Shown here: positions 1-64,000 of the stretch, piece after piece
Position numbering within the stretch: the first letter of the stretch is position 1
Layout: the number at the start of each line of letters is the position of its first letter
IMG/VR virus record: IMGVR_UViG_3300050336_000170
Coordinates: 1-64,000 of that record
Source: a virus
Lineage: Duplodnaviria > Caudoviricetes
Length of the DNA: 64,000 nt
Strand: one strand, 5' to 3'
Notes under the pieces: generated by a model
What the model was told of the DNA's origin: nothing
Database searches by the model: none
What the model saw: the letters and a program-made list of their open reading frames with translations, nothing else
Position numbers and translations under genes: made by a program

Positions 1-176
1 TAATTAATCACCTTCCTATAAAAGATATGTTTTATCGGTTTTGTTCACTTGATTCTAGCCTTGATTTTTCTGTTACCTTTTCTGCCCACACTTGATATTT
101 AACGCATTCTGTTTGCTCATTACTTTCAAAGCAATCATGATATTCTGGACAATCTGGACACGGATATTTCATATAT

Positions 177-3166
177 TTAATACAACTCCTTAGATAACTG
201 TTCTAAAGACTTCTTCGCTTGCAATAAATCATAATCTTCAATATCGCTTATGATATTATTTACTGCATTTTCAATATCAGTAAGCATATCACTCACTTCA
301 TCTTTATTTACAACTTCATATCCTAGTTCTTCTTCGGTAACAGTGTAACTATTAAACTTTCTATAACTACTCATATGTATCCTTTCTAAATAGATTTGTC
401 AGTTGGTTACTTTAATATATAAAATCAATTATTTCATATCCCGTAATATCAATAATATCTTTTATCTCTTCAATTTCTAAATCACCATTTTTCTTTTGAT
501 CTACTAATAATGTTGCTATACAATTCATTTTTACTTTAACTTTTCTTTTCATAATTTCCCTTTCTAAAATCATTATAAAAGGTTAATTTCATTGCTAAAA
601 TACATCGTATTGAATATCAATTGGTATTACAAATTTATTGATCCATTCTGTATAACACTTTTGACATACATTGAACCTATGTAGTTGCGTATCAAATTCG
701 CTATGATATCCCCAGAGTTGCTTCACATCAAAAGTTTCTTCTACTACTTTAAAGTCATCTGTGTATTCAATAGTTTTTACTGTCTTACCGCAACAATTAC
801 AAGTTATTTCATCAATCACTGTTTCAATAATCGTTTCTGTTTTTTGAACAACTTCTTCGTGTGACTTGATCATTTATAATCCTCGTAATCCTCATCATCA
901 AACTCGCCACGTGCTGCTCTGCATTCAGGACAATCGTACAAAGGCATATCTTCTTTTTCAGGCAGTACCTTAAAATCTTTCATAAGATTGACCAATGCTT
1001 TGTCAAGACACAATCTATGAAAATCAATAGTCATCATCTTCTGTTCATCATGCAATGGAATTGTAAGTGCATAGTATTCTGCGTTTTTCTTCTGTTGTAG
1101 AGTAATTTCCTTACCGCATTGATTACAAATAACTTTTGTCAATTATGTATCTCCTTATTTTTATTTAATTTGTTAATGAATTCTTGATTTCATTATGTTT
1201 ATATGCTGTAAGACTGATTTAAATCTATTGGTTTACCATCTGAGCATTTTTGAAATATACCATCTTCTATAAAATAATCGTCGCCAAAATAGTTAAATAT
1301 TGATTCAATATCTTTTAAATCAAAACTTTCATTAGCAATTTGATTTAATATTCTCTGTAGCTTTTTTTTACTTAATATCTTGATTAAAATCACCACCAAA
1401 TTCGAGTTTTATCAGTTATGAAACTTACTTCCTTTATATTTTCTATTCTGCATACTCTTCAAACGGTCTTGCTTTTTATCTTCTTCCATTTGTTTTTCTA
1501 CTTGCTTTTCTAACTCCATCATTTCTTGATAATATTCTTCACGTTCTTCTTCGGAACTAAATTCTCTAGGTTCTATTTTATTTCACCACCAAATTGAGTT
1601 TATTCACTTTTGTGAAACTATTACTGAATCATGATATATTGACTCTCCATCAAAACTTAGAGTAATATATAAATATTTGCTTACCACATCTTTATCAAGT
1701 ACATTTATAACTTCTAATTTACATTTTAGATATTTCTTTAATAGAGATGCTAAAATCTTTTTAATACTAATCTCTCCTCTTTTTAACTGATAGAACAATG
1801 ATTTTATTTACTTATGTACTCCTAAGTTGAAGTAATTACCGTATGATGTTATTTCTAACCCTGTCGGTTTTGCTGTTCCAATTTCATAAGGATTATCATT
1901 ATCGTATTCATAATCCCAAACATAAAAAGTAATTTCAGCGTCATCTTTTAAATCTTTAATAGTATTCATTAATTCTAGTTTTGTCATTATGTTTCCTTTC
2001 ATTAAAAATATCTCTTTTATCAGTTTTTGTTTTCTAAATATTTGTCATAGTATTTAGCGATTTCTTTTCTATTCTCCTGATAATCACTCACATTACATTC
2101 CCAATTCCATGTATCATAATAAGATTCTTTATATAATTTCATACCATTATCAAGAACAATATAACTATAAGGATTTTCCGAATCTCCAACATAAAAGAAA
2201 TCGATTTTACAATTATCAACTAAAAATTTAAATCTATGCTTTTTAGTTAAATATTCTAATTCATCATGTGCCTCTTTTTCAAATGCTGCCAAATATTTTT
2301 CTTCTACTTTTGGTGCTTTCCAATTAAGTAAAATTACTTCCATTTATATTCCTCTTTATAAAGTAAATCAAACGAGAATTTTATTAACTATAATAGTTAC
2401 TTATTTCTTTCCATGTTTCATCATATTTATCTTTTGGTATCATAAGATCACACGTAACATGACACCATGCTAAAGTCGTACTAGGTAATGGCATTACCGT
2501 TTCTCCGTCAACATAGCATATATTTGTAACTTCCTTATAATCATATTCAGTATCTTTATACTTACATGAACAATTCTTAGCGTTACAATATTTCATTTAA
2601 TTCCTCTTATAAAACGTATATTTGGTTTGTATTAGTAGAACACAATTTGTTCTCTAATGGGCAGAGTAGAATAACATAAACAAGGCTTAATTATTTCTTC
2701 GACAACATCGCGATCTAATCTCTCAGATATGTATGCCTTATCACACTTAATGCCCCTTACATTTTCTGATGCGGTTTTTAATTCATATACTGTACCGTTA
2801 AATAGTTCTGCGTATGCGTGATTTGGGTTCTTAGAAATCTTTTTAATATGTTTAGTGTTTATCTCTTGAATTAAATTATCAAAGAATGCCATACCGCCAA
2901 CCATCTTATCTGTAAATATTACATTGTTCATTTAATTTCTCCTTATCAAATTATGTTTTTGTCTGCTTTTCATATGTGCTTTTATATTGATCACAAACAC
3001 TAGGTGTTATCCCAATAGAACCTTCATTATTTTGCGCCGAGAATGTAAAATTAGGAAAACTTTTATCTTTTATTTCACAATACTGATTTGTACTAATATC
3101 TCCCAAGAAACAACTTGGTTTAGCGTAAATACAAGTAATGCAGCCTTTAATATAATATTTACTCAT
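177..3166 (-). CDS. Run of about 12 small hypothetical phage ORFs (50-110 aa, several with CxxC pairs)
   Basis: Consecutive minus-strand ORFs, most with a recognisable SD; no recognisable family. Confidence 0.7.
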
Positions 3167-4037
3167 TTCTCAACAAAACTCCACTTTCATCAGCTTTATA
3201 ATTTGTTATTAACACTTCAATATCTTTGCTGTTTTTATCTTTCTTTTGATAATTACAGTTGCTGTATGTATGATTTAAATAATATGTATTGTATTTTTTA
3301 GACCACTCTTTTAATATTTCGTTAGACCTGCCCTTGCCTTCCAAGATATTTGAGAGCGCAAAACAAATTTCATTATCATTAAGAGTGTCTAGTTTATGTA
3401 ATAAATCGCGTTCGTCTTTTTCAGTCCAACCACCATTTTCATTATAAGCAGCAATAGTTATCAGGTACGGAGGATCACAATATACAAAATCTTCTTTGTT
3501 TAGTTTTTCAATTTTTAAATCTCTAAAATCTTTATTACAAAAATTGCATTGTTTGTTTTGTAGTTGATTTATAAATGTTATAAATTTTTCTCTAAGAGAT
3601 GGATTGAATGAACTTCGGTCTTTGCCAAATGGCATATTGTATTCGCCTTTAGAATTAAACCGTATTTGATTGTTAAATGAGTAACATATTAGAGTATATA
3701 AAACCAATGGATTTTTGCACTTGTTATAGTAGTTTCTAAATTCTATGTATCCTTCTGAATTAGTCTTTGTTAGTTCATATAGCTTAATCCATTCATCAAT
3801 CTGATTAAGCATATCTTCTGTATTGTGAATTTTAAAATACTCCAACATATCTACAACTTGAGTCATTGCATCATTGTAATACACTTTTTTAGCATTTACA
3901 TTTATTCCTACATTGAAGCCTCCACCAAATAAATCTACAAATGTATTAATGTCTCTAGGGAACAATGGAATAATTTGAGGAAGTAATTTATATTTGCCGC
4001 CTATATAATTAAGTGGACTTTTTGTGTATGTTTCTAT
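3159..4037 (-). CDS. dam: Dam-family (D12 class) N6-adenine DNA methyltransferase
   Basis: Motifs FVDLFGGGFNV and VYCDPPY. The frame stays open upstream of the listed start through the conserved KSPLNYIGGKYKLLPQI to an ATA at 4037, behind SD AGAAAGGA and directly after an in-frame TAA. Confidence 0.9.
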   Translation of the reverse strand: METYTKSPLNYIGGKYKLLPQIIPLFPRDINTFVDLFGGGFNVGINVNAKKVYYNDAMTQVVDMLEYFKIHNTEDMLNQIDEWIKLYELTKTNSEGYIEFRNYYNKCKNPLVLYTLICYSFNNQIRFNSKGEYNMPFGKDRSSFNPSLREKFITFINQLQNKQCNFCNKDFRDLKIEKLNKEDFVYCDPPYLITIAAYNENGGWTEKDERDLLHKLDTLNDNEICFALSNILEGKGRSNEILKEWSKKYNTYYLNHTYSNCNYQKKDKNSKDIEVLITNYKADESGVLLRNE

Positions 4038-4089
4038 TTACATATATCCTTTCTGTATTATTTTATTTAACCATCAAATTGTTCTATTT

Positions 4090-4872
4090 TTACTCGCAGA
4101 AATAAGTTCCTGATTTTGTATGCCACCAAATCTTTCCCTGTATACCATTGCTTTGCCATACAACTGTATCTGGACAGTATTCACCTTCATCGTTTTTGCC
4201 ATGCTCTCCATTTAGAACACGCAACCCGATATAGAAACTTCTTTCAATAGCCTGTAGTTCAAGTAGCGTATCACCCCTATCAATCAGGAAAACACCTTTA
4301 TAGCAAAATCCAGAATATTGACCTTCTGCATCAAGCACTTCTCTAATCGTATTTGGGAATCGTGAATCTTTTGTTCTGTTTATAACCACATTGCCATAGC
4401 ACATAAGTTCATCATCACTGATAGATGATCCTGCGCCACCTTCTTTATAAATAACACACATTATGCAGAATGCGTCATCCCAAGTAAATGTCTGATATGT
4501 ATCTGATAAATTCAACGCAACAATTTTTTCATTCCTAAGATTTGTATAATGCTCTGCTGATTCAAAGTCCCTAATTAGAATTGACTCAACAATAAGTTCC
4601 ATATAATCTTCTGCATATTCTGTTTCAATGTTTTCAATTACTGTATCTGCTACTCCACTAACAATATGTAATTCAGTTGTTTCACAATATTCTAATGTAC
4701 TTATTTCTATCGTATCAACGGAGGCTACTACCCTCTCCACCACCTCAGTTGACGGTGTTTCTATGTCATTATTAGTATGTATAGCAGTTTTAATACTCTG
4801 TCCAAGTCCACATAGAACGAATACTATACATACTAACCATATACATAAATTACCTATTATCCTCATCTTCAC
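4090..4872 (-). CDS. Cell wall hydrolase, SleB/Hydrolase_2 family, with N-terminal membrane anchor
   Basis: Hydrophobic N-terminus; VIYKEGG (candidate catalytic Glu) and GNVVINRTKDSRFPNTIREVL...GQYS signature. Confidence 0.8.
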   Translation of the reverse strand: MKMRIIGNLCIWLVCIVFVLCGLGQSIKTAIHTNNDIETPSTEVVERVVASVDTIEISTLEYCETTELHIVSGVADTVIENIETEYAEDYMELIVESILIRDFESAEHYTNLRNEKIVALNLSDTYQTFTWDDAFCIMCVIYKEGGAGSSISDDELMCYGNVVINRTKDSRFPNTIREVLDAEGQYSGFCYKGVFLIDRGDTLLELQAIERSFYIGLRVLNGEHGKNDEGEYCPDTVVWQSNGIQGKIWWHTKSGTYFCE

Positions 4873-4900
4873 TTACCTTTCTTTAGTTGTTTTATTTAAG

Positions 4901-7900
4901 TTACTTATTTAGCTTTTTACTTATACTAATTTCAATTTCAGGAGTGATCCTTGAAGTGATATCACAAAATTTCAATATTTCATAAAATCGTTCAAGAAGT
5001 GTTTCTTTATCTGAATCAACACTAATATCTTCCAGCTTTGCTTTAATCATGTTAGCAATTACAACCTTACCACAACTGATGCCTTTATAGAATTCTCTCT
5101 GTGACAGTTCTTTTACGGTTTTATGTATCTGATCCTGCATCTCCTTCGGTAGTTCAGCCATTATTATTCTTTGCCTCTCTTCTTTCTTTTGACTCTTTAA
5201 TAATTTTGTCTATCTCATTTTTAGTATTTTCATCTGACATATTTGATAATTCTTTAAATAGATTAGTAATCTCCTGATAAAAACAGTTTATGCCAAATTT
5301 AAAACCAACAAGCAATCCATTCTGATAAGATATATTTGCCTTTTCATTATGCTTTTTCTCAAGCTGTTCTACTCTTTCTTCCAGTGTCATTTTATAAATC
5401 CTTTCTTTTAATTAAGTTCTTCATTGTCCTTATGTAATTTCATTGCACTTTCATTATTTATATCGATAATTGAGTATAAATATCTTTTCATATCTCTAAA
5501 GAATATTCGCATTACTGCTTCATTAGGATGAAAGTTTAGTTTCAGTAACTTCTGATTAACTATATTTGCTGTATTTCTATGTCCGAAAGCTACACCTTCA
5601 TAGAAAATATTCCATTCCCTATCTGTTATCTCACCGTATTTTTCTTTTAACATATAAGACACTCCTTCCTAATTAAGCATATTCCTATCCAGATCATAAA
5701 TCTATTATCTATCACCAAATCCAGCTAATTTTGGTTTATCTTCAGGTTTCTTTTCAATAAATAGTCTTGTATCATTGTCAAATTTGATATCAAGTGTGTA
5801 GCTTTTACAATCTACTGACTTTAGCTGTGTTTCAATATCTGCAATAATTTTAAAATCCATATGTACTCCTTCCTAACAAAATACGCTTTTCATTTATTCT
5901 TCTTTTTAATATCTGAAATGACAACTAGTGTAGCCAAGAAAGTACAGGCTAGATACATCACGCCAACGAACACTTTAATAAAACTGTCGTTATCAATAAC
6001 TAAAAAATTAATTGATACAATTAGTGTTAGAATACCAATAATGCTATAAATTATTTTTTCAAACATTGATATAATTTTCTCCTTTCTCAATGAAATATAA
6101 CTTTCATTGTACTTTATTAATCGCTATTTATTTTATTTAACCTATGTATAAGATCATTAAACCATGTTTTGTCATTAAAGTCAACAGCTATTTTCATTAA
6201 TGCGTAAATTCCGTCTATCTCAAGTTGTTTATTATGTATTGTTGTTTGCTTCACCTTGTCGGCTACATTTTCCCTATATGGTTTACAAGCATTATTCCAT
6301 GCTATAGGGTTTGATAAAATGAAGAACACTGGATCAAACTGCTCTTGCTTATTCCCTAGTATAGCAATATCATATGAGGCACACAGATACATATCTTCAT
6401 CGTTCCATGAATCTATAAGGTATTTCATGTTATTTTCGTAGTGTTCTATAAATTCAAATGATGTATCATAGCGATATACTATGAATTTATCTGTTCTATC
6501 TATTTCAGTCATAATGTTTTACCTTTTTTAAGTTTAAGATTTATCAAATTTTTTATCTAGTTCTTCAAGAGCTTTCATAAGAAAATATCCAACTAGACTT
6601 CCATTTAATTTATAACTTATTACTTCAATATTATCAGTATTACTTTTCGCCAATTCATTACAAGCTAAAGTCAATGCAGCATACACGACATCATAATGCT
6701 TTTGTTCAATCATATTTTCCATGCTATCACCGAACCAAATTCAAATTTCATTAACTTTAAAACTATCTTGATCTTCAAAATATTCAATATTACCTTTTAT
6801 AATCTCAGTCATAATCATATCTGAAAAAGTAAAATCATGAGTAAAATAAAAATCACCAACACTATACGCTTGATATAGTTTTTCAGCTTCTTTTAAGCAT
6901 ATTTTACCATTTGAATATTTTTTTAGTATTTCTAACATTTCTAATGATACTTCTAGTTTAGTCTTCATTATTTCCCCGATCAAATGTCAGTTTGGTTTGC
7001 TTACAGGTTCATAGTTATTTTCATAACCCTTAGAACACATATAACAAAAATCCTCTAATTCTTCATTTTCTAAATCTTCATCATGAACACAACTAGTACA
7101 ATCTTTTCCTGTCTCTTGATAAAAAGATTTATACATGGCTTCAACTAATTTTTCTGCTTTGTCTTGATCGTCAACAATAACATCAGATAATATTGCATTA
7201 GGTATTTCTAATTCATTACTTGCTTTTTCAAGTTTTCTCATATAATACCTAAACATAACATCATTATCTGGCTGCAATAAAGCTATCTTGTCTGAATATT
7301 CTCTTATTTGCTGGTCTATTTTATGTAACCACCAAAGAGTCTCTTCTTTTAATGGTATTATTTTCATTCTAACACCTTTCTAACACATTCTAACACCGAA
7401 TGAAATTGAGATTTCATTTTGAATTTTCTAATGGACACCATTCAGGAAACGTATAGTCTCTTAAATGTCGAAGTGATATCTGTTTTCCTTCATATCCTTC
7501 TGGATGTGGTTTTCTAATCTTGGGATGAAAACATTGAGAATTAAAATCATTATATCTAGGGCATTCTCTACAGTTTTGAATTTCTGCTAATTTCATATAT
7601 CTCCTTTTCTCAACCAAAGAATGATTTTATTAACTTGTAGCAACTGTTAAAACAGGTTTTGTTTCAAATGGCATTAGTTTGCAATTCCCCATCCCGCCAG
7701 CAGTATAAATTTTTGCTATTGAAGATTCTAATGTAATTACATTATTGTTAATATCTAATATCTTTAGTTTATCTCTAACATTATCGTCTTTTGATATTTC
7801 GTATATATTCACAGAATTTACTATTGGATTGTGAGATATGATAAGTTTATTATCATTGACGCACAAAATTTCTTGCTGACTCAATTTAGTATTTTCTATA

Positions 7901-8505
7901 TAATAATCATAAAAACATCTAACAAGTGTTGTATTTGGTGCTAGAAATTCGTATTTTTGCAACATTGTAAATATATTTTCTAATCTATTTAGTTGTTTTG
8001 CTTGAACTGGAAGATATGTACTATTGATATAGTTTACAGGGGTATATCCACGATTAGATTCGGTCAATAGATTATGCACCCATTCGATAAATCTTTGCCA
8101 CAATGATTTCTTATCAATATTATATATTCTCAAATCATCATTATTGATTTGATATTTATTCAGTAACTTTTCATATTCATGAATTAGAGGATCATATTTA
8201 TCACAGATTTCTTTTAGCTTCGGTTTAAAATAATTGTGTATGTTATCATCTATCCATGATAAATATTGAACTGCTTCTAATCCCATAACTACTCCTTTAA
8301 CTATAAAAGTAACACTTTATTGGCTTTTAGTAATATTTCTTTTAAGCTGCTCTAATAACATTAGTTTATCTTCAGTGTTCACAATAGCTTCTTGAATATT
8401 ACATATATCATTATCTTTTTTATATGTATCGTCTAACATACACCAAGCTTTATGGTCTGAAAAGAAATACTTTTTACATTTGTCTCCAATACATTTCATT
8501 TGCAA
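4901..8505 (-). CDS. Run of small hypothetical phage ORFs (incl. 7630..8286, 218 aa)
   Basis: Consecutive ORFs with SDs; no recognisable family. Confidence 0.65.
7367..7396. repeat. Three direct repeats of TTCTAACAC at 10-11 bp period
   Basis: Copies at 7367, 7378 and 7388, overlapping the SD and start of ORF 6987..7367. Confidence 0.8.
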
Positions 8506-8647
8506 TTCTCCTAATCAATACACTATTTTATTCACTTATTTTTACTTCTTATTGCTGAACATATTTCTTCAACAATTCCATATATGACAAGCAGGAATAA
8601 ACTTATAATTAAAAATGTATAAAACGGGTGAGCCATACACCAACCTA

Positions 8648-9934
8648 TCATGAATAACTCACCTCATCCTTGTCTAGCCTCATTTGAACGAAAATAGGAA
8701 ACTGAAGGCTCGGAAGCTTAGTTGTTTTGTCCATTGATTCTTCCTTATATTTAACTTCAATGATCTTACCAATCAAATCATCTCTCATGTTCCATAGTTG
8801 GCTTCTCAGCTCGTCAGAATAACCGCTACCGACATTAACAGGATTACCCTTGTAATCTACAACCAAAGCTCCAAGAGTGCCTGTGAGTCTACCAGATCCC
8901 TCTTCATAACCAATAATTTTCAAATCAATATTATAGAATCTCTTAACCTTTAAAATTCCACTATGACGCTTACATTTATATATAACATCCTTATTAAGCA
9001 TTAAACCCTCTTTGTCATTACTTACAGCAAAGTTCAACCATTTATCAATCTCACTCTGATCTGTTCCCTCATAATACATATCTACAATAGCGAGATTCTG
9101 TATCTCTTGAGACTTAATAGTTTTTCTTAATTGGTTTAGCTGTTCTTTACGTTTTTTATATGTAAGTTTGCTTTCTCCGTTTGCAAATTCATTTGCAGGG
9201 AATATATCAAATATTGTGAAGTATATTTCTGACTTATCTGATGAATCTGAATTTAATATACCAGTGCCAATGCGAAAGTTTTCATTATCAGAAATACCAT
9301 CAATATTTTTACGTTTTAACTCACCATCAACAAAGTAACCTTGTAAGTCTAGTGACTCTAAATCTGAAATAATATGATCTAATCTACTGTATTCTTGTCC
9401 TTGTCTGCTGATTAATTTACCGTCAACATAGCTACCCCTATTACCGTTCTGTTTCTCACTTAATGAAAACCATTCATTATTTTTCAGAGGATACTTATCA
9501 ATTGAATAAGCTTGCTGTACATCATATTCGGGTATAAAGTCTTTTCCATAGACTTTATTTGCAGTCTTACTATCTATTCCAAGACGCAAAGTTTTAGTGA
9601 TAATTGACTTTATAAATTCCTGCATCTCAGGATCGTAATTTGTGAATACACTCTCACAAATTGAGATATCAATATCTCTACCAGTATTATTTATCATTAA
9701 ATATTCAAGTAGATTGTGCATAGAACCAACGGATGAGTAATTCACATTTGGGATGATTCCGACTTTTTTATTAATCTTCTTTGTTGAAATGCCTGTAATA
9801 ATAAATGGGTTCAGCAAAAAATGAAGTACCTCTCTAAATGAGTTACCACCGTTATATTTTGCAAGAATATTCTCTTTGTCTTTCTTACCATTTGTTGCCT
9901 GAAGCTCTTCGCAAATTTTCTTTACTGTTTCTAT
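8648..9934 (-). CDS. ATP-dependent DNA ligase
   Basis: SEKQNGNR (KxxGxR adenylation motif), VDGEL, KEGLML, LKVK, NVGSG, LQFPIF. The frame is open upstream to an ATA at 9934 behind an SD-like GAAAGAGTGA. Confidence 0.92.
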   Translation of the reverse strand: METVKKICEELQATNGKKDKENILAKYNGGNSFREVLHFLLNPFIITGISTKKINKKVGIIPNVNYSSVGSMHNLLEYLMINNTGRDIDISICESVFTNYDPEMQEFIKSIITKTLRLGIDSKTANKVYGKDFIPEYDVQQAYSIDKYPLKNNEWFSLSEKQNGNRGSYVDGKLISRQGQEYSRLDHIISDLESLDLQGYFVDGELKRKNIDGISDNENFRIGTGILNSDSSDKSEIYFTIFDIFPANEFANGESKLTYKKRKEQLNQLRKTIKSQEIQNLAIVDMYYEGTDQSEIDKWLNFAVSNDKEGLMLNKDVIYKCKRHSGILKVKRFYNIDLKIIGYEEGSGRLTGTLGALVVDYKGNPVNVGSGYSDELRSQLWNMRDDLIGKIIEVKYKEESMDKTTKLPSLQFPIFVQMRLDKDEVSYS

Positions 9935-9988
9935 TTTAGTTCACTCTTTCTTTTAATTAATTAACTATAAACTAACGGATTGATCAGT

Positions 9989-42285: not shown

Positions 42286-42289
42286 ATAT

Positions 42290-51821: not shown

Positions 51822-54800
51822 TCATAACATATGTGATATATATTTCTTTTCAGCATATGTCAAATTTTCAAATAGTGGTCTGTATTTTTCATCTAATCTT
51901 ATAATTTTTTCAATTTGTTCATCTACTTGTGATACAACTTCATTTTTATAAGAATCATCGAAATATTTTGACATAAGTAGACATTCTCTCCTATCCTTAA
52001 TATCGTAAACATTTCTATATTCATTCCCATTAAATACTATTTCACGTACCATATCTTTTACGTCTTTTTTCGTATTATGAAAATGTCTTGAAAAATTTTC
52101 TACGTGATCTATATTTCCACCAGCATAATATTTTGAATAAAATTCTTTACCACATGAATCACATTTCATTGTAACACTCATAACCTTTTCTCCATTCAAA
52201 TCAAACATTTATCGTTATTTAAACTGAATAATATCATCATACACTTTCTTATCATATGTTATAAATTCTACATCTCGCTTACCTAGTGCCGTAAACCATA
52301 CGTGAAACCCCTCTGGTGCATCTATATGATACTGCATTTGCCAGATACGATAATTATTGTCAATCAATTTTTGTTTAATTTCATACCATTCTGCTACTGA
52401 TTTAAGGTCTTTCAGTAATACCACCACTTCCAAAATTGTTTTCTTTAAGACTATTGTACTTGTGGGCATTTGTTTTTTCAATATCAAGTTGAAAATTCTA
52501 CTTGCACACAAAAAGCGAAGTTTGTGAAGTTGTAGATAGTATACTGCTACACATTTATTACGTCAACCCGTTTTATTGGACAGTGATTTTTAATCGCTAA
52601 TTATCTGTATATCGTTTATGATTTTTTCACTAAATCCAACATCTTTTAAAAATTCTTTGAATTTATCTAGTAATATAGGCATTGTGCATTGTTGATTGTC
52701 ATCGATTATTGAGAATAACTTTTCATATTTAGCACCATTGTTGAGTTCACCTTTGAAATAAAAACATACTGTATACATTTTATCACACTCCTAGCAATAC
52801 AAATGCTTTTATCATTTGTAATAATTTTAAATGTTCAGGTTTTTCATCTCGCATTAACTCAGAATTAATTTGCATTTCCAAATCAACAAGTTCTTCAAGA
52901 TCATCAATGCATAACTTCAATTTATCTCTTGCATTATACTTTAATTCATCAATTTTACATGATGATGATAATATCGGAACGTAAAACATTTATATTCTCC
53001 TATATCATTAAGTATCTTTCTTCTCGATAATAAGCAATATCCTTGTAGAATTGTCTATCTGCTTTAGATTCACTATATTGACTGCAAGGATAAAAATAAG
53101 CACAACCATCATAAACATCTCGCCAATATTCTGTTACAATACCGTCTGGTGTAGTATGTTTAACCTTTGTCATATTCTTGACCTAGCCTCCATTACAATT
53201 TGTCTTGCTCTTCCCTCAGAGCATTTCATAGTCTTAGCCAATCCTGCTATTTTACGGTCTTCACTATAATAGCTTTTATCTAAATAACATATTGAACAGT
53301 ATTTGTTACCGTTTTCATCAATGTATTTTACTGTATGACCACATTTACATTTAACACCTTTTCTCATGCTAGGAGGAATAATGTCCATCATATCACCTTT
53401 CATATCTATTACTAATTTATTTTAATTGGCTTATACTCTATGTATACAAGCCTTTTGGCTTGTATTTCTAATACCCCTTTCTATATACTTTCTTGAGGTA
53501 TTTATAAAGTTTATTTACAAAGTGATAGACTGTATAGCCCATACACATATACGCAATAGCATTATATAAATCAAGCGAATTGAAGTATATATATCTTAAA
53601 AGTAATGTTACGTAAATCCAAACACTAAGAGATAGGATTCTCGCCTTTTTCATGAGTATCAACTCCAAAATATATTGTTTACTCTTTTATCATTCCCCAT
53701 TTCTTTTAAATAATTCACTCAATTTAGATTATCGCTTTCAATTAAATAGTAACTATAATGATCATCATCAAAAAACTTCATTATATCGTAACCTTTTTCT
53801 TGCAAGTTTGTTTTACTGTCACTTACATATACTTTATCAATATCTTGACCATTCTTTTGTAAATCTTCAATTACTGATTCATCAAAACCCCATTTTCGTA
53901 AAGTAACTTCAATATCTTCTTGTATAGAGTCAGTTAATTCAATAGTTGGCTCTGCTACAATATCTGCAAATTCATGTAATACTCCATACCCAAGCAATGC
54001 AGTTGCTATTAAACCTGCTGTTGTTATACACCCTGCAACTCGATAAGCTTTCAATTCCTCTCTAGGATTTGTGCATTGCCTCATTGTACCTAATGCAGAA
54101 CAACTTATTACTGTTTCTCCATTACCGTCTAATCCTCTTGATCTACATAACATACAACGTTTACATTCTGGTTTATCATAAAAAGAACATTTATATACAT
54201 AAACCATTACTATACACCTCTTAAATATTCATTCTAATTATACTGCCTTTTCTATCTTTAGTCTACCACAAACTTACAAAATATTCAATTGTGAGTGTCT
54301 ACACTTTTATTATACTTATCTTATGCAATTTTATGCGCTCGCTCTTCAAACCAATCTAGTAAATTCTCATATGCCTCTCCCTCTGTATCACCAGACACTA
54401 TAAAATTACCAAGACTATCATAGTATTCATAATGATCCATTACATGACGCAAAATATAATGCACTATATCACAGTTATATACACTCATACGGTTACTATC
54501 TCCTTTTCTTTTGTTTGATATGGTCTTACCTCTATAAATCTTAATCCATGCTGGTTACATTGATTCTCAGCCTTACAAGCGGCATTATAGATATCATAGC
54601 CATCTATCATAAAGTTATCATACCGGCCTGTACCATCCTGCCTACAAGCAGAATAATAAAACAACAATCCATTTTTAATTAACTGATTTATATTTATAAT
54701 ATTATTCATACGTATTATCCTTCCCGTAAATTTTTCAATGCTTCATTACAAATGCTAACAATTACGTCTTCTGCTTCTTGTGTCGTGATATTATCACTAT

Positions 54801-57314
54801 ACATTAACTCAAATTTGGCTGCTTCACGTGGTGTCATAAGATAAATAGCTATCCCATTGTAATATGTCTTTCTCATAATATATACTCCTTTTATTGTTAT
54901 CATTATATATTGTTTTATTATTTTGTCTTTAGTATATATTATGTTTTAGCTATGTATATGTGACTATTCTCTCTTAATACTTTTTATTATTTTAATCATA
55001 TCATTTTTATTGCCACAGGTTTGTAATACTCTAAACAATTGCATTGGTTTAATGTTTACCGGATATTCACTATTTATAATATTTTCTTTTGTTAAAAGCA
55101 TAATCAATCTCCTTCCAACAAGATAAAATATCTTTTCTATTTACTTTCTCTTCTTTTTTTGAGATCATATAGATGAGCCTTAAATGGTACTAATTCTTCT
55201 TCAGACGCTAATCTTATATTAATGTCAATTCCATTTGTCAAATCAATTTCAAGTTTTCCAATATCGTATCGTTCTCCATTTTCAGTATAATAAGAACTCA
55301 TACATGTGCCACTTTCCCAATAAAAATCTCTACCAATATATAGTATATTCTTTGTTATTATTTTATTTCCTTTCTCAATAAAACTGTTTTTCTATTGGGT
55401 TACTCCAAGAAAAGAACATAATTCATCATGAAATACATTCCCAGAATAATCATCCATACCCATTTCTCCTTTTGTAAAACGAAATTCTAATGCATCTAAT
55501 CTCGTCTCTTCAGGTTCCCATTGACCTTCAAGACCATAGCATGAACAATGTGATCCATTTACTTCATATAGCTTTCCGTCTTGCTCAAATAATACAAAAG
55601 CATCTCCTGAATAATTATCAGTGCCATATGCGGCAAATAGAACATTAATGTTGTCATATTTTTTAATTGCTTCAGTCATTTGTTTTTTCTTTTTGATCCA
55701 ATACGATTCATTTGTAAACGGTGCTTTATCTGCAAAATACTCTTCTTCTGTTAAATAGATATCTTCAAAATCACCAATCATATCTATTTTTGAATTCCAG
55801 TTATGTAAATATACTGACTCTTGATTAATAATTTCATTTAATGTTTTCATTCAATAACCTCCACAATATTTTTATTCATAATTAATATACTATCACAATC
55901 CCAACCATATAAGGCATAATATAACGAGTTTTCCCATTCGCTATTATCTTCACTTATGTGAATTTCAATTGCATCAACACCAGAAGCCAATATGCTTTCA
56001 AAATCAAGCCAATATTTATTTATTGAATCAAACCCAACAAGACTTTTATTTCTCGGCAACCCGCGCAAATCATCAACACTTCTTAAATGCAATACATTGG
56101 CATTATCTGAAAGTTTAAACTTAAAACTACATTCATCTTTACATTCTCCAAATTCTTCTGACTTACACCAATCTTTCCACCCATATTCCGCATCGATTGA
56201 TGAAGCCCATAATCCACCTCTTGGTTTTACAAAAGGTTTGTTTTCTATTTTATTAAACAAGGATTCATCAAAATGTGTATGCCCATAATGTATGTATTCC
56301 AAATTAATCACGCTCCCGCTTTAATTTTACCATAATTGTCAACCAAACTATTCTTTGGTTGTGTTATTAAATCGATCTTCACTGAATTGATATTGTTCAC
56401 AGTCATAAAGTTCATGTTTAATGTTTCTCTTATCACACTCTTGCATACAATTAGCGCAACAACAACAAACTAATTTGTTTTGGTAACGAATTGTCATTGT
56501 AATTTCTCCTTGTTTAATTCTAATATTCTTTCACATATTTTTCTTATACCAGTGTTATAACCACTGTCCCATTCATCGACTAACTTCTGTTCTTCTAATG
56601 TTAGTTCATCACGCCATTCCTGCGTCCATTCATCATTGGTTTCATCTGACCAATATTCATACATTTCATCTTCTCTTTGAGTTGAAATCATTTTAATTCA
56701 CCTTATTTAACCATTCTTGAAATTCATATCTATCAGGTTCAAATGCTCTATCTATATCTCTTTGTGATGCAACCATTTCATAACAACCAAATTGATTATA
56801 TTGAACATACAATTTTTCATCGATTTTTAAAAAACTTGATCCACAATCAGTTATAAATCTATCAGACAAACAACTATTACAAACGGATATGCCGTAACAA
56901 CTTGAACTAAATCCATTATCTTCGGATAGTCTAATGTTTTTATCGTTTGATGTTTCTGTGTTGCATATTTTACAATTATACATTTTATAATTCTCCTTAC
57001 CAAATTTAGCTTTTATCTGTTATTACACTTTTTAATAATTTGTTAATAAGTTTTCTAGTTTCTTTCTTATTAACTATCTTATCTATATGATCAATGGTTT
57101 TGTATCCTTTACTAAATTCCCATTCAAAATCTTCATTTGACATTGCTCTAATATCTCCTGTTTCATCTTCATTCCAAACGACATATTTGTTTAGATCAAA
57201 CATTGATAAAAAACATTGCTCTGACATTAATTCTGGTTTCGATTCAATTGTTTGTGCTAAAATTTTGTGTATGACTATCGCTATAGAACAACCAAGTATT
57301 GTAATAATAATCAT
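51822..57314 (-). CDS. Run of small hypothetical phage ORFs (incl. 55392..55850 and 55847..56311)
   Basis: Consecutive ORFs with SDs; GSHCSCYGLEGQW and KPRGGLWAS...GWDCDS segments resemble conserved phage proteins of unknown function. Confidence 0.6.
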
Positions 57315-57340
57315 TTTTTATATAACCTCCAATACTTTAT

Positions 57341-57892
57341 TTAATTAATATCTTCGGTAATTGATAATGCAGTTTTGCTTATCCACACTGGCACATCACG
57401 CTTAGTCCACTTAAATAAATGCTGTTTATCGCCTTTGTAGTAGTTTCTGTATGCTGTTACAGCATCCCTGTCATAATATTGTATTGGCATTGCTTGAACG
57501 AATGGTGTTAAGCCGATAGATGGTAAACTAATATCAATACGTCCATCAATAAATTTAAAATAGCTGCCATGATCCTGCGTGTGACCGCCTCTGTATTTCC
57601 ACTCATCGTTAAGAGTTTCTAACATTGAAAATAGATAATCATAATTCTGTTGTGATTCTCTTACCCACTTATTGCAAGGATGATTAACATGTGTCGGCTT
57701 TATAGTTGGTGTGCATTTTGAATATAGTGTTTTAAACTTTTCAATATCTCTTACCGTAACTATATATCCTGTCTGTATATAGATTGCGGTTGATAACATC
57801 TGAGCATATTCACTTATCATTTTATTAACGTGTTTATCCGTATAATATTGAGCATTTTTATTTAAGTCATAATCAAGTACAAATATATTCAT
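57341..57892 (-). CDS. Pyrimidine-dimer DNA glycosylase-like protein
   Basis: MNIFVLD...DKHVNKMISEYAQMLSTA...PTHVNHPCNKWVRES...QAMP...AVTAYRNYY. Confidence 0.7.
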   Translation of the reverse strand: MNIFVLDYDLNKNAQYYTDKHVNKMISEYAQMLSTAIYIQTGYIVTVRDIEKFKTLYSKCTPTIKPTHVNHPCNKWVRESQQNYDYLFSMLETLNDEWKYRGGHTQDHGSYFKFIDGRIDISLPSIGLTPFVQAMPIQYYDRDAVTAYRNYYKGDKQHLFKWTKRDVPVWISKTALSITEDIN

Positions 57893-58039
57893 GGCTTTGC
57901 TCTTGTTCCTGTATATCCGTACATATCACAGTATGTTGGTATGTTTAGATAAGCAATTTTAAATAGCCATTTTGGTACAGATATGAACTTCCCGAATAAT
58001 TCAACTTGATATATTTGTGCTTTCATTTTATTTCACCTT

Positions 58040-58267
58040 TCAATAAATGGATAAAAGAGTTATTTCATCTTGTTTTAATTTCGTTAATCCTATTGGGCAA
58101 ACATCCGCAGGATAATCATGTTTGTAACAAACCATAGGTCTTTCAGACTTATAATATATAGAACATAAATTTTTATCTGTTAAATATTGACATCTAACAC
58201 CTGCTCTTTTATTTATTTCTGGAATTTCAAATCTAATACAACAATCTCCGCAATGTAAACATTTCAT
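58040..58267 (-). CDS. YkgJ-like cysteine-cluster protein
   Basis: CxxCGDCC...CxxL...CSIY...RPxVC pattern. Confidence 0.7.
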   Translation of the reverse strand: MKCLHCGDCCIRFEIPEINKRAGVRCQYLTDKNLCSIYYKSERPMVCYKHDYPADVCPIGLTKLKQDEITLLSIY

Positions 58268-60958
58268 AGTTTTTATCTACTCTGTACTGAATTATTAAAA
58301 ACTCTTTCAACACATCCAGCGGCATTTACTAAGTCCTCAAACCAACAATTAGCTTTTGAACTAAAACAAACATCATCATATTTATCTTCCGCTTTTAAAA
58401 TAATATCATGTACAATTGCTAAATGACTAGCTATACGTTCTGTGTCCTTTTTACTTAATTCTTTCATAATCTGTTCTCCTAATCTATTGACACACAATAA
58501 TGACCTGTCAACTCGTCAACTTCTTCGCTTCTTTCATCTTCTGCTGGATCATAATATCCAGTCATAACATCACTAAAATCCATTGATTCAAACAAATCTG
58601 CCAATACATTGATTGCATTTTCATCTTTAGAAAGTATTTCATAGCCTGTAGCGAAAAACTTTTTACCTTCTGTTGGGTGTTTAGGTAAAGTGTTGGTTAT
58701 TTCTGTCCATAAATTATTCATCATTTCTTTTATTTCCTTTCTTAATAAGTAGATGAAATAGTTGTTTGATCAGTCTTCAATATCTGTTATCACTGTTACA
58801 AGTTTCGGTACTAAATTTTCACACTCTTTGGAAAACATTTGTTTATACGCTCCGTTGCTTTCTCCCCCATTGTAAAGTTTCTCAATTTCTTCTAAGTTCT
58901 TAAAATGTTCACAGTTATTAAAATCATTGCTAAACCACGGATAACCACCGCTATATTTATCAATTCCAAAATACTTTCTTGTTATTTTATCCTGTAAAAC
59001 ATAATATCCTGTTATTGTTCTCAATGTTTATTTTCCTTTCTATATAGAATTATTACTCACAATAATTCCTCTCATCAAATAATAGATTTATCTGCTACCA
59101 CGCGCATACATTTTTGTTAATACAACAAAAGTTCCAAGGACTAATGCCGCTGTTAAACCAATTTGTAAAAGCAAAGTATTCCATGTCCAAATAAAAGCTA
59201 TAATAAATCCTAAAAATAATGTAAGTAATACCGCAAAAATTAATCCTATAACAAAAGTTGAAAAATCATCATTCATAAATGCACCACCAAATATCTGTTT
59301 TATAGACTATTCAAAATTAAACTGTTTAAGCAATTGACCTCTTGCCCATCGTTTCGCATATTCTCTTGCTATTATACTTGTATATTCATCTCTTGTTATA
59401 AGTCCTTTAATATAAGAGTCTGTTACTCTTTTAATAAATTCTTCCATTTTAATTCTCCTTACCAAATATGTATTTTATCAACCAATATTTTTTATTAATT
59501 CTAAATATTCATTTCTACTTAATATATCAACTGGTTTATCCCAATATTCAATTCTAACATTTCCATTATGTGAAAATCCGATAAGTTTTATTTTGTTATC
59601 GTTCATTAATTTGTTTGATAATATATCAACACTTTCAACTTTATTATTCAATCAGATTCAATCCTTTCATATTTCTCTGTGTTTTCAATCCATTTATATG
59701 CTTGATTATCAGTATCAAATAATGGCATATTCATATTTAATTCATATGGTTTTTCGCCAAAAAGACTTGTTTCAAAAGCATATTTCCCAATGCCAAGTAA
59801 GCGCAATCTTGCTGTTTGTATACATTTATCATCAACTGATCGTCTGTAAATGATATTATTCAAAATAATTCCTCCAAACCAAATGTGTTTTTCATTGTAC
59901 TATGATGAATCTTTGCATTTCTTCATTTAATTCAAAGTATTTAATTAGGTCATCCCATTTAACCCACGCAAGCGAAGAATTAGATATTTCATAAGATACA
60001 GCACCCCATATGTCATATGCTTTATCATGAATTCTATAAGTTTCTCCTGCCTTATAATGTGCGATAAAAAATGTACAATCTTTTTTACAAGTAATAAACC
60101 ATTCCCCAAAATATTTTGGATTGTTAATTCTGGTACCTTCATACTCTTGCTGTATAGCTTCCGAAAGATTATTACTATATTTCATTTCAAAATCTCCTTA
60201 GAATATCATGTTTACTCATATGAGATTGTATTATCACTAAAATTCAACACAATACCATTAGCTAGATGAAAATTCTGTTTATTCTTTTTGCAAACTGTAA
60301 GAGTATAAAGTAATTTTTTATACTTGTTCATTAATTTCCGTTTAATAAGATTCATTTTTAATTCTCCCTCTGCCTGTTAGGTCAACCAAATTTAGATTTT
60401 GTCTTGTTTAATTTTATTTAATCAACATTTTCGTTTAGGAAGAATAAACTATTACTCTTCCTTTTCTATATTACCAATCTGCATTTCAACATCCATTTTT
60501 ATGGAGTCAAGAATTAAAGTAAGCATTGTAATTCTTATTTGTTTAAATATATGTTTATACCAATCTTTACAATCAAACAATTCTTGAACATATTTTTCAT
60601 GATCTGGATATGTTTCATCTTGATATGGAGATAATGCAATTTCCCAATCTCCACCTAAATCATGTTCAATTTTTTCATCATCTCCATACCAAGAGTGTAA
60701 AACTACCTCTTTATTTCCATACCAGTTGCATTCTAATACATCTCCCAATTCAGATGTATAAACATAAATTCCGTCATCATCTTCATTTTCAAAATTGTAT
60801 TTGTTATTTAGTTCGTTAAAAACTTCTTCATAACAAATAAAACTATCATATTCTTCGCTGTATGCCAATCCTTGTTCATTGCTTAATATCTCTTTGCTGT
60901 TTTCATCCTCTGGCATAATATACATTAATTTTTTCATTGTTGTTTATCCTTTCTTAAA

Positions 60959-61510
60959 TTAAACTGTTTTCTTTGCCCTGTTACTAATACACCAGATTAA
61001 AACATCTTTACTTACTTTTGCTTTGGCATCGTTGATATCATTTGCCACAATATAAACCATAAGCGATCTTAAATGTGCTGCTCTGTTATCCTTACCCTGT
61101 ATATAGTCCTCTGCCATGTCAACATCAATTGTTGCAAAATCAATATCTTTAAGTGATTCAAGAAAATTACCAATAGTAGCTTTGTATGTTGCCCACGATG
61201 CAGGATTGATTGATTTTTCAAAAGCGTCATAATATTTCTGATTGTTTTCATTAAGATTGAATGACTTTACATGACGCTCAATCATTGCAGTATATTTTTC
61301 TGTATGCTCAATATTAAACTTACGATCAAAATGCGTAGTATCAAGCTGAAGAGCGTTAATGTGTTCTCTGATTAACTTCCGTGTTGTGCCTACTGTAGCA
61401 TTAAAATCTAATGCTTTGCATACTCCATCAAGATTCTTACTGTTCTGTACTGCATTTATAAAGTTATCTTTATTGACTGTTCTGCGTCCGATAGATAATA
61501 ATTCATTCAT
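60959..61510 (-). CDS. DNA-binding protein: N-terminal HTH-like plus integrase core-binding (SAM-like) domain, no catalytic domain
   Basis: FINAVQNSKNLDGVCKAL; SWATYKATIGNFLESL..IDFATIDVDMAEDYI...NRAAHLRSLMVYI resembles the tyrosine-recombinase CB domain. Confidence 0.45.
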   Translation of the reverse strand: MNELLSIGRRTVNKDNFINAVQNSKNLDGVCKALDFNATVGTTRKLIREHINALQLDTTHFDRKFNIEHTEKYTAMIERHVKSFNLNENNQKYYDAFEKSINPASWATYKATIGNFLESLKDIDFATIDVDMAEDYIQGKDNRAAHLRSLMVYIVANDINDAKAKVSKDVLIWCISNRAKKTV

Positions 61511-61838
61511 GGTAATAACTCCTTTATATTATATATTATACCGCCTTGGAACGGATCACACAATACCATAGTGTGAGGGCATTATGGGGAACTATTGCTC
61601 CCCATCCTCTGCATTAGTCTCTAGTACAAAATACTTTCCTGACAGAATAATGTCTAACTTTATTTCAGTATCGATATTGATATTTGTACCCAATTTCCAT
61701 ATTTCATCAATATCAATTTCATTTGTATGACAGCTTACTAATACTTTGTTTCCTTCCTGTAGTGCCTTGAATGCTTTATCAATTTTTACAGGCTTCAACC
61801 GTTCACCCCCTTACCCTATGTATCCTGTTTACATTACT

Positions 61839-61867
61839 ATTATATGCTGATTGTTTTGTTTTGTCTA
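61839..61867 (-). promoter_or_regulatory. Sigma-A promoter
   Basis: TAGACA-17-TATAAT on the minus strand. Confidence 0.65.
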
Positions 61868-61896
61868 GTTTATTTTATTTAATTTGTATATAAAGT

Positions 61897-63180
61897 TTAA
61901 GCGGTTTTATTGGTTACTATGCTACCTGTTTGCTTAATAGCATTGCGAATATTAAATACAATGTCATATACTTTTTGACTTCCTGTACCATTTTTGCTTT
62001 TCCAATAACGATAACTTACACCACCGTATTCTGTTATGGTACATTCAGCCAATGTGTTTAGTATCCAACCTCTTGTGCGAATTGGAATATTTATATTATA
62101 TTTGTCTGCTAGTTTTACAATCAAATTACCTCCGTTAATTGTTCCACCATTTAATATGATATTTTCTGTTGATTTAATCATTTCATTCTCTTGTCTTGCC
62201 TGTTCGTCTGCTTCTATTTTCTTTTTCTTTTCACGTTCTTCTTTTTTAATGGCTTCTTCCTGCTGTTTAATTGCTTTAATTTTTGCACTAATTTCAACGC
62301 ATTTATCTAATTCTTTTAAGAAAGCTGCACCGTGAAAATCTGCAAACTTCCCATTGTTGTCTCTTGCATCAATATATTGTGCTATACAACGATCAATGCC
62401 TAATTTAAGAAATTCAGCCTGTAACTGTTCGTTATTACCGTGTTCAGAAATAAATGCTTCTTCTTTTGCTGTTTGTTCTTCTACTAATGGTTTATATTCC
62501 TCATAGTTTTTACCTTTATAAATGTCATGAAATATTTTCTCACGATTTTCAGAACCATGATAGAATTCTTGAATTAAATATTCATAATTACTTCTCTGTT
62601 TTAAATCATATTCTGTATAACCAAAAGACACAAGATAATCATTTGTTTCAATCATATAATAATACTTGTCATCATCATTTTTTGCGTATTCTTTATCGGG
62701 TTTTCCTGCACTAATCCACAACGGATAGTCTATACCGTCACAAGAAAGTGTTTTTACATATTTTGCCCTGATCCGTTTTCCATCGCGGTTAAACATACCA
62801 TTAATAAAAAGAGGCTTCATAAGTTTTGCATGTTCCTCTATTTCTTTTTCATCAGTATGAAACACTTCATTTTTTGTTTCTTCTGGTTTTGTATAACGTG
62901 GAGATAGTCCATATTTTTCTACAGCACTTTCAATCATTGCATGAAATTTTTCAATACCATAATTTTTAAATGCTTCTTCAAATTTATTAGTATCACATAC
63001 GCCCAAACCGCTTTTGCCTTCTGTTAGTTTCCCATCAATTTCAAATAAATCTAGTCCATATGAATTATGAAATATTTTTGCATTTTGTACTGGTTCAAAC
63101 TTATGCATCGTTTTACCGTTTTCATCTTTTCCAATGTTCTTTAATATGTAACAAACATTACTATGTTTCTGTTCAGTCAT
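61897..63180 (-). CDS. Hypothetical 427-aa phage protein
   Basis: Long ORF with a charged coiled-coil segment near the C-terminus; no family recognised. Confidence 0.75.
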   Translation of the reverse strand: MTEQKHSNVCYILKNIGKDENGKTMHKFEPVQNAKIFHNSYGLDLFEIDGKLTEGKSGLGVCDTNKFEEAFKNYGIEKFHAMIESAVEKYGLSPRYTKPEETKNEVFHTDEKEIEEHAKLMKPLFINGMFNRDGKRIRAKYVKTLSCDGIDYPLWISAGKPDKEYAKNDDDKYYYMIETNDYLVSFGYTEYDLKQRSNYEYLIQEFYHGSENREKIFHDIYKGKNYEEYKPLVEEQTAKEEAFISEHGNNEQLQAEFLKLGIDRCIAQYIDARDNNGKFADFHGAAFLKELDKCVEISAKIKAIKQQEEAIKKEEREKKKKIEADEQARQENEMIKSTENIILNGGTINGGNLIVKLADKYNINIPIRTRGWILNTLAECTITEYGGVSYRYWKSKNGTGSQKVYDIVFNIRNAIKQTGSIVTNKTA

Positions 63181-63187
63181 TTTAATA

Positions 63188-63463
63188 TTACCTTCCTACT
63201 CCAATAAATAGTTTATGCTTGCCCCATTTTATAATTTTAAAATCTACCTTGTCTAATGTTTGTACTAAATCTTTTATATTCCGTCTAACTTCAGATATTG
63301 ACGGAGCAATGCAGCAATCAACTAAAATTTTAGGTAAGAATCTTTCATTTGTGAATACCGTCATGTCCTTTTCTGTTTGTTTCCAATCATCCATATCAAA
63401 AGCAAACAATACAGAGGGATGAACGAGTAAATCACCTATAACAACATTTTCTATATGCTTCAT
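63188..63463 (-). CDS. Stand-alone S4-like domain resembling the TyrRS C-terminus
   Basis: LPKILVDCCIAPSISEVRRNI...IIKWGKHKLFI resembles TyrRS LxxxLVxxxLAxSxSEARRxI...LRxGKKxF. Confidence 0.55.
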   Translation of the reverse strand: MKHIENVVIGDLLVHPSVLFAFDMDDWKQTEKDMTVFTNERFLPKILVDCCIAPSISEVRRNIKDLVQTLDKVDFKIIKWGKHKLFIGVGR

Positions 63464-64000
63464 GTTAACCTCATTTTTCTATTAAATCATTAATTCCATT
63501 AAATATTTTCGACATAATTGATTGATACTTGATATTGGCTTTTTCTTTTGCTTCTTCCATAGTGCAAAGAATAAAGTCGGCTTGTAATTGATCATTAATG
63601 TAATATGAATAATAATATTTATCATCATAGTTTATGGCAGGAATAGAAATAGTAAAAGATATTGATTTAACAAAAGGTATATTGATTATCGCTTCATAAC
63701 CACTCAATTCTCCTTTAAAGTATTTTTCATACCAATTCAAGTTTTTGAAAATCATTTTGTGTTTACTCCTTATCAATATATTGTATTCTTTCGCTGTTTA
63801 TATACTACATCTTGACGCAAAATCACCATAAAATTGCCGTTTTATCGTGGTATCTTTATACAATCAGGATGACAACCATAATATTCTATTCCATATGCAA
63901 TTACATCATATCTCTCAAAATCTTCGTCATGATATCCTGCACGTTTACCAATTACTTCACCATAAATCCATTCACTTTCTTTGATTTTTGAATTATATAC

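Follow-up and report, generated by a model that had tools for sequence, protein, structure and literature searches.

Palindromic boxes with individual centers at early-gene junctions of an SPbeta-like phage: candidate joints for gene exchange

The first 64 kb (positions 1 to 64,000, GC 0.30) of the 131,585-bp viral record IMGVR_UViG_3300050336_000170, which is classed by IMG/VR as a provirus, carries a short palindromic element in the gaps between its small early genes. This stretch is called the window here, and the element is called the box. Genes of the record are read from the minus strand up to approximately 76 kb and from the plus strand beyond. The box is real, and it is found family-wide in SPbeta-like phages. 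Our analysis favors a function as a joint between genes over a purely regulatory array: boxes that share their arms, each with a 6-bp center of its own, might serve as addresses at which related phages recombine in register. We hold this reading tentatively, at somewhat short of an even chance, and the evidence that favors it comes mostly from relatives and has a small effect size. The binding of a protein to the boxes, the identity of that protein, and recombination at the boxes are matters that we infer. To our knowledge, the box has not been described in the literature on the SPbeta family, and it is distinct from the SPbeta repeated element (SPBRE).

Sites were called with an iterated weight matrix spanning positions -3 to +22, using a threshold of at least 12 bits. 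This approach yields 84 sites genome-wide, compared to 2.8 in shuffled sequences, and 70 of them are located inside the window. The strict form of the palindrome, AYVAAA-N6-TTTBRT, occurs 41 times in the window, whereas dinucleotide shuffles give an expectation of 1.74 +/- 1.29 with a maximum of 6. The whole record contains 50 strict copies, of which 46 reside in the region 1-77 kb. The distance between the arms is equally constrained, given that the full motif is present 41 times in the window with a spacer of N6 versus 0-4 times with each of N2-N5 and N7-N11. An unbiased count of dyads in gene-upstream regions placed AAA-6/7-TTT at the top, although the 7-nt form may derive from overlapping AAAA runs. 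Near-invariant bases are A1, AAA4-6, TTT13-15, and T18, and the flanks extend the dyad to CCR...YGG, often to AAACCR...YGGTTT where room allows. Dyad arms of 9-12 bp around a strict 6-bp spacer represent the inverted-arm arrangement of a tyrosine-recombinase core site of the dif/pdif, lox, or FRT type. The spacers themselves are all different, with 77 unique sequences among the 77 sites of the early arm in the phage under study.

A preliminary description of this DNA had reported about 70 palindromic copies, approximately 38 of them strict and 35 degenerate, with one or two strict copies per window expected by chance. It had also noted a spacer that is fixed at 6 bp but free in sequence, flanks of the form CYR...YRG, and the architecture of a tyrosine-recombinase core site. 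The counts given above agree closely with these statements, and the last is a fair description of inverted arms around a strict 6-bp spacer.

The boxes are placed at gene boundaries with considerable regularity. Approximately 70 of the 77 sites in the minus-strand early arm (about 90%) are located at gene junctions, and 64 of the 155 called gene junctions carry a site. Boxes run on to approximately 76 kb, and few are present in the plus-strand late arm. When viewed in gene orientation, the right arm is followed within 8-30 nt by the Shine-Dalgarno (SD) sequence and start codon of the next gene. Arm positions 2-4 coincide with the stop codon (TAA, TGA, or TAG) of the preceding gene in 24 of the 77 early-arm sites, which means that stop codons account for the arm variants ATAAAA, ATGAAA, and ATAGAA. 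Three clusters of junction boxes in the window, as defined by the weight matrix and by junction placement, and the neighboring features are as follows:

Cluster A, 18..15010: 24 sites of 18 bp, each at least 12 bits, starting at 18, 575, 1395, 1790, 2367, 2609, 2945, 3173, 5876, 6090, 6734, 6979, 7400, 7613, 8514, 10907, 11144, 11947, 13270, 13403, 14002, 14345, 14714, and 14993.
Cluster B, 28095..42738: 28 sites, starting at 28095, 28500, 28748, 29912, 30452, 30701, 31311, 31560, 31808, 32111, 33941, 34257, 34906, 35194, 35606, 36328, 36858, 37081, 37988, 38430, 38976, 39256, 40447, 40711, 41096, 41136, 41547, and 42721.
Cluster C, 49405..63845: 17 sites, starting at 49405, 49684, 49921, 50213, 51792, 55123, 55378, 56342, 56999, 58051, 58753, 59074, 59286, 59461, 59878, 60385, and 63828.
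Promoter TTGACA-17-TATACT, 15068..15096, minus strand: heads cluster A.
Promoter TTGACA-17-TATAAT, 43592..43620, minus strand: sigma-70-type consensus, heads cluster B, no box on top.
Replication operon, 15124..28021, minus strand: helicase/exonuclease V-like protein, DnaE, exonuclease, primase, DnaB-like protein, and Sak4-like protein.

No box is found at the internal junctions of the replication operon. Two matches fall in the region 15011-28094, one within a gene (26405) and a second, weak one (15174), and the box at 28095, which is part of a 30-bp dyad (28092-28121), stands at the head of this operon. Similarly, a scan of the window revealed no sites in 42739-49404, which is the stretch that includes the lysogeny operon presented below. 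The box at 14993-15010 is located approximately 50 nt downstream of the cluster A promoter and directly ahead of an SD. These observations match the earlier claims that sites sit at or over the stop codon of one gene and just before the SD of the next, that strong promoters head the arrays, and that no sites occupy the junctions of the replication core or the control block, where the intragenic match at 26405 and the weak match at 15174 are the only additions.

Two further features of the promoters in this region can be mentioned. The promoters that head clusters A and B both contain TTGACA-N3/4-TGGAAA (15081-15095 and 43605-43620, minus strand). This is a post-hoc pair only, and the shared sequence may be a real operator of a repressor. 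Also, a perfect TTGACA-17-TATAAT is present at 39818-39846 on the plus strand, opposite to the minus-strand array, and precedes a 114-codon open reading frame (39847-40191, plus strand) that could be a moron expressed in the lysogen.

Several lines of evidence indicate that the boxes are recognized as DNA rather than as folded RNA. Positions 3 and 16 can pair in 35 of the 77 sites, compared to 35.9 in shuffles, and the commonest combination at these positions is an A.G mismatch. Likewise, positions 2 and 17 can pair in 66 of 77 sites, compared to 66.5 in shuffles. The predicted hairpins have a mean energy of -2.25 kcal/mol, versus -2.5 +/- 0.2 kcal/mol for chimeras that carry the right arm of another site, and no Rfam family matches at the sites. 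Because covariation is lacking and the hairpins are no better than those of the chimeras, a two-fold symmetric protein is taken to recognize the boxes in duplex DNA, and near-invariant bases in a strict dyad lead to the same view. From their sequence features, the boxes look like docking sites of a paired DNA-binding protein. The preliminary description, having noticed that the arms do not co-vary, had similarly preferred a dimeric DNA-binding protein over an RNA hairpin. Other candidate functions were rejected. An intrinsic terminator or structured intercistronic RNA is largely refuted, as no stem is kept by compensatory changes. A promoter function is disfavored by the absence of conserved -35 and -10 elements around the sites and by their symmetry. 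LexA (Cheo) boxes of the form GAAC-N4-GTTC are absent from the window.

Comparisons with related genomes provide the main reasons to consider the boxes as joints. Spacers are again unique or nearly so within each of five relatives (57/57, 90/90, 60/60, 57/59, and 53/53). The genomes G002 and G008 share 8 identical spacers, whereas 2.1 are expected, and 7 of these are collinear (order permutation P = 0.005). Homology is detectable for only 2 of approximately 60 genes in the regions with shared spacers, and sequence conservation is lacking immediately beyond the boxes. The arms of these shared-spacer sites differ, leaving continuous identity of only ~9-12 bp. Conserved, collinear centers around unrelated genes favor a joint over a regulatory array, since the preservation of a spacer that is not read by the protein is difficult to square with the latter. 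That the replication operon, whose genes are co-adapted, and the lysogeny operon are free of boxes is counted on the same side, as is the presence of intact PF00589 recombinases in the genome.

Two centers recur more widely. CTGGTA is common to four otherwise very divergent genomes, where it is found at 28748-28765 in the window, at 32956 in G002, at 27930 in G004, and at 33361 in G005. In addition, CAACTA (58753) is common to three genomes.

The box also occurs in cultured model phages. In SPbeta, TAAAA-N6-TTTTA is present 34 times at a spacer of 6, versus 0-3 times at other spacings, and these copies are located at gene junctions before SDs. Homology breakpoints were tabulated for the right arms of SPbeta, phi3T, Goe11, Goe12, and Goe14. 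One-sided breakpoints were found at 82 of 298 palindrome junctions and at 133 of 702 other junctions (odds ratio 1.6, nominal P 0.003, with pairs that are not independent). Among the 82 palindrome breakpoints, the partner carries a palindrome with the same spacer in 70 cases, no palindrome in 12 cases, and a palindrome with a different spacer in none. There is a modest enrichment of palindromes at the mosaic breakpoints of SPbeta-family phages.

The mechanism suggested by these findings would operate as follows. Each box consists of two degenerate half-sites, (AAAC)CR-AYVAAA, around a strict 6-bp center, and would be read on the duplex by a two-fold symmetric protein. In this phage, boxes fill the short gaps between accessory early genes, and each, by virtue of its own center, would be an address-specific joint. 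Related phages would then recombine in register at boxes of equal center, such that single genes or short runs of genes are swapped while gene order is kept and no deletion occurs within a genome. Tyrosine recombinases require identity in the overlap region between the sites that they join. The likeliest enzyme would be one of two conserved candidates encoded outside the window, which are the only canonical PF00589 tyrosine recombinases found genome-wide:

Recombinase of 285 amino acids, 76367-77224, plus strand: Xer-sized, located where the two arms diverge, with box-like words upstream (75734 and nearby).
Recombinase homologous to SPbeta YomM, 108905-109912, plus strand: full-length homologue of this orphan protein (28% identity, E 3e-41), encoded in the late arm, with the residues R..K..H-x-x-R..H..Y visible in the alignment.

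Both proteins are plausibly intact as catalysts, judging from their sequences. The preliminary description had recommended a search for intact tyrosine recombinases elsewhere in the genome, and these two genes, one of them YomM-like, are the outcome.

Some known systems can be compared with this proposal. The pdif modules of Acinetobacter plasmids are Xer-type 11-6-11 sites flanking mobile gene modules. Like the boxes, they comprise many dyad sites with a variable 6-bp center that bracket small gene units on one replicon, and exchange of units between replicons has been inferred for them from comparative genomics. They differ in having distinct XerC and XerD arms, an alternating orientation, and a reliance on host Xer, whereas both arms of the boxes are one degenerate word, approximately 80 sites are carried by a phage, and all centers differ. 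A second parallel is provided by heterospecific lox and FRT sites, which are used in the laboratory for recombinase-mediated cassette exchange and in which recombination is restricted to sites of matching spacer. Such a combination of identical arms and differing spacers would explain centers that are unique within genomes and conserved between them. However, those sites are engineered. We know of no natural phage example of cassette exchange through heterospecific sites.

A more specific version of the joint proposal holds that the boxes constitute a natural system for in-register cassette exchange, with shared arms and private 6-bp overlaps, that permits swaps with co-infecting relatives or resident prophages. 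We consider this version unlikely as it stands, albeit far from fanciful. In such a system, a phage tyrosine recombinase would be unable to delete or invert DNA within one genome. If true, the exchange would be a natural counterpart of cassette exchange at heterospecific lox sites. More generally, address-specific crossovers, if real, would provide a means by which large temperate phages replace their small early genes so extensively and yet in good order. The long-standing question of how phage mosaicism preserves gene order could then be put directly to experiment in SPbeta and phi3T, two genetically tractable phages that share the box.

The preliminary description had called the arrangement integron-like, and this label is wrong. 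Integron attC sites and the boxes are alike in that both mark the borders of cassettes in arrays whose genes mostly lack promoters. However, attC sites are imperfect palindromes of 57-141 bp, and it is their folded single strands that a neighboring IntI recombines at attI. The boxes are 18-30 bp long, exhibit no covariation or selection for folding, and have folding energies equal to those of arm-swapped chimeras. Nor is there an attI/IntI platform, as the PF00589 genes, which were not examined for the IntI-specific insertion, are located at 76367-77224 and 108905-109912 and the arrays number at least three, every one under a promoter of its own.

Several observations weigh against joints. Recombination has left no direct sign in this phage. 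No duplicated units or cassettes were found in this genome, and no valid joints were found among the anaerobic-digester metagenome contigs of one run, where the sole apparent joint had a 21-letter side and belonged to another contig. This run, which may be where the DNA came from, was the only one found to contain it, and no RNA run was listed. Spacers shared between this genome and the five relatives are at chance level and are not collinear. Canonical recombinases are also encoded by relatives without boxes, and a recombinase core site would be expected to have longer and less degenerate arms. Most of the breakpoints in the SPbeta family (133 of 215) are at junctions that lack a palindrome, the odds ratio reaches only 1.6 among compared pairs that are not independent, and the same-spacer result may partly reflect plain descent with a conserved flank. 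Furthermore, site density in 11 genomes tracks the yopQ-yopR lysogeny module, which fits a regulatory binder better than a recombinase. The earlier suggestion that the arrays are built by insertion, excision, or shuffling of cassettes therefore stands in part: relatives are consistent with joints between exchangeable genes, whereas insertion and excision find no support in this phage.

The small-gene arrays align with no relative, and at the DNA level what the closest relatives have in common with this phage is limited to the replication core. Five relatives lack a homologue of 186 of the 238 genes of this phage. Conservation is lowest beside the boxes, since any homologue among ten relatives is found for 9 of 80 box-adjacent genes versus 15 of 67 genes without a box, and this counts in favor of joints.

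The alternative that survives best is a purely regulatory array, in which the boxes are operators of a protein from the lysogeny module; a genome-wide repressor site had also been the alternative named in the preliminary description. This alternative is a serious one that we regard as quite possible, if on the whole doubtful. The module is an operon of the SPbeta type (46451-43698) with three genes:

MazF/PemK-like toxin gene, 46002..46451, minus strand: head of the operon, Pfam PF02452, E 1.5e-16.
YopQ/SroE homologue, 44651..46033, minus strand: 460 amino acids, 25% identity over 324 amino acids to SPbeta YopQ, E 4e-19.
MrpR/SroF (YopR) homologue, 43698..44654, minus strand: 318 amino acids, Pfam PF22822, E 7.6e-16, above the cut-off.

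The YopQ homologue is encoded directly upstream of the MrpR homologue, as are yopQ and yopR in SPbeta, and the full order of MazF, YopQ, and MrpR is repeated on the contig (L099) of an MrpR relative with 62% identity. Closer MrpR relatives are located on contigs of 1.7-3.1 kb, and two other contigs encode an identical MrpR protein and match the window at 100% identity. No antitoxin gene is visible beside the toxin gene at the head of the operon.

The most plausible protein for such a regulatory function is the YopQ/SroE homologue, of DGQHR/DndB type, which is a candidate binder of the boxes on the basis of gene content; its DGQHR and DndB matches are weak and both are below the cut-offs. The boxes would silence accessory early genes in the lysogen or act as roadblocks to their transcription, after the fashion of the KorB OB sites of plasmid RK2 or of mycobacteriophage stoperators, and the link to mosaic boundaries would be a by-product. 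Placement of the boxes agrees with this idea, since they are confined to the early arm, are located just before each SD, and are absent from the operon that is needed in the lysogen. Among 11 genomes of the DnaE clade, the six with an MrpR-family gene have 61-97 sites, and the five without one have 14-34, which is near the null expectation from the same pipeline. In tblastn searches, a YopQ-like gene is the only one detected in several box-rich relatives but in no box-poor one. SroE has been reported as a second repressor whose targets are unknown (bioRxiv 10.1101/2025.11.27.690993). If the boxes are operators of SroE/YopQ, the targets of this second repressor would be named and a new type of silencing array would be added to phage biology.

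A precedent for repressor sites dispersed across intergenic gaps is provided by the stoperators of cluster A mycobacteriophages, where dozens of protein sites occupy the short gaps of a temperate phage (PMC9283540). Stoperators are 13-bp asymmetric sites that function in an orientation-dependent manner, have no variable center, and are bound by a monomeric helix-turn-helix repressor (PMC9283540), whereas the boxes are dyad-symmetric rather than asymmetric and oriented with transcription.

Other evidence is unfavorable to a purely regulatory array. It leaves unexplained the identical, collinear 6-bp centers of G002 and G008 around unrelated genes, and the strongest promoter of the array (43620-43592) has no box. 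The genome comparison is confounded by phylogeny, as illustrated by G001 and G009, which are 97.6% identical. Moreover, a training-free count at a spacer of 6 gives a 1.8-fold excess in G010, which has no MrpR match, and only a 1.5-fold excess in phage c-st, which has homologues of YopQ and YopR, and this loosens the association between MrpR and the boxes. A regulatory function as a roadblock or silencer could coexist with the joint function.

A second regulatory possibility, and the initial reading, is that the master repressor of MrpR/SroF type encoded at 43698-44654 uses the boxes as its operators, which would make them a palindromic and multiplied SPBRE. The assignment of this gene to the MrpR/YopR/SroF family, with a degenerate tyrosine-recombinase fold, is well supported. 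The family profile of the protein matches the YopR/MrpR/SroF structures 8bj6, 8a0a, and 9rd5 (E ~1e-22), and its AlphaFold2 model has a predicted local distance difference test (pLDDT) score of 95.7, with 9rd5, which is phi3T SroF bound to DNA, as the top Foldseek match. There is no PF00589 match for this gene product. Alignment to a published table of catalytic positions (PMC10516654) reveals that the catalytic residues are missing (Arg I is E148, His II is I254, and Arg II is E258), although the tyrosine is kept as Y309.

Apart from this clear family member in the window, MrpR as the binder is suggested by its fold, given that classical sites of tyrosine recombinases have inverted arms around 6-8 bp. 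It is also suggested by the resemblance of the half-site AYVAAA to the A-tract hexamers of the phi3T box and SPBRE, and by the association of box density with MrpR presence in the 11 genomes. The known repeats SPBRE and Phi3TRE occur in the same phage family and, like the boxes, reside in gaps directly upstream of SDs (PMC10516654; bioRxiv 10.1101/2025.11.27.690993), and the window contains a homologous repressor operon. However, the box word does not match these operators. SPBRE as derived from the SPbeta sequence is ACAAATACAAAWAATATGTATA, an asymmetric and different word that is present in approximately 10 copies and has a monomeric binder (PMC10516654; bioRxiv 10.1101/2025.11.27.690993). 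SroF, too, is a monomer on its target, a 26-bp box that is asymmetric (bioRxiv 10.1101/2025.11.27.690993). SPbeta thus holds both SPBRE and, separately, 34 palindromes, yet chromatin affinity purification sequencing (ChAP-seq) of MrpR gave ten prominent peaks, all ascribed to SPBRE, and did not report the palindrome (PMC10516654). For this reason MrpR is an unlikely binder of the boxes, and the main early promoter has no box. The SPbeta palindromes and the training-free count together downgraded the multiplied-operator hypothesis, which we now regard as improbable. The comparison with the MrpR-bound SPbeta element, which the preliminary description had proposed, was thus informative in two ways: SPbeta does possess a box-like palindrome, but SPBRE is not that palindrome.

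It is also conceivable that no dedicated protein is involved and that the boxes are passive boundary sequences, whose arms supply microhomology for general or Sak4-type homologous recombination. Recombination microhomologies of this kind have been proposed for lambdoid phages (boundary sequences) and for T4-type phages (PeSL elements). The enrichment of palindromes at mosaic breakpoints agrees with such a function, and a Sak4-like annealing protein is encoded at 25691-26830. Nevertheless, the arms of the G002 and G008 sites differ, the ~9-12 bp of identity between them is too little for homologous exchange, and near-invariant bases in a strict dyad whose gap is fixed at 6 bp speak for recognition by a protein, all of which renders passive boundaries decidedly improbable. 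Weakest of all is an RNA-level element, such as an intercistronic hairpin for processing, termination, or translational coupling, which is scarcely credible despite its transcribed position between stop codon and SD and the long perfect dyads of some copies, because covariation is absent, folding at -2.25 kcal/mol is no better than in chimeras, Rfam offers no match, and recognition of a single strand needs no symmetric sequence.

Several additional features of these genomes were noticed during the analysis. The box-free relative G001 (IMGVR_UViG_3300045988_142724) has approximately 13 copies of TAAC-tatTAAG-GTTATACAT ahead of plus-arm genes, for example in 54285-118989, and this repeat may be the operator or promoter of that lineage. 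In the window, a gene of the IS605 OrfB/TnpB type (50253-51458, minus strand), whose product has PF01385 and a Cas12f-like TNB domain, is positioned exactly between the boxes at 50213 and 51792. A 48-nt repeat that contains a hairpin occurs at 47632-47679 and 51529-51576, and its two copies are 75% identical. The early arm also contains two tRNA genes (42215-42363, minus strand), which lie between the boxes at 41811 and 42721. Finally, a radical-SAM protein (37095-37976, minus strand) and a PAPS-reductase-like protein (32402-33868, minus strand) are each encoded by a single accessory gene flanked by boxes.

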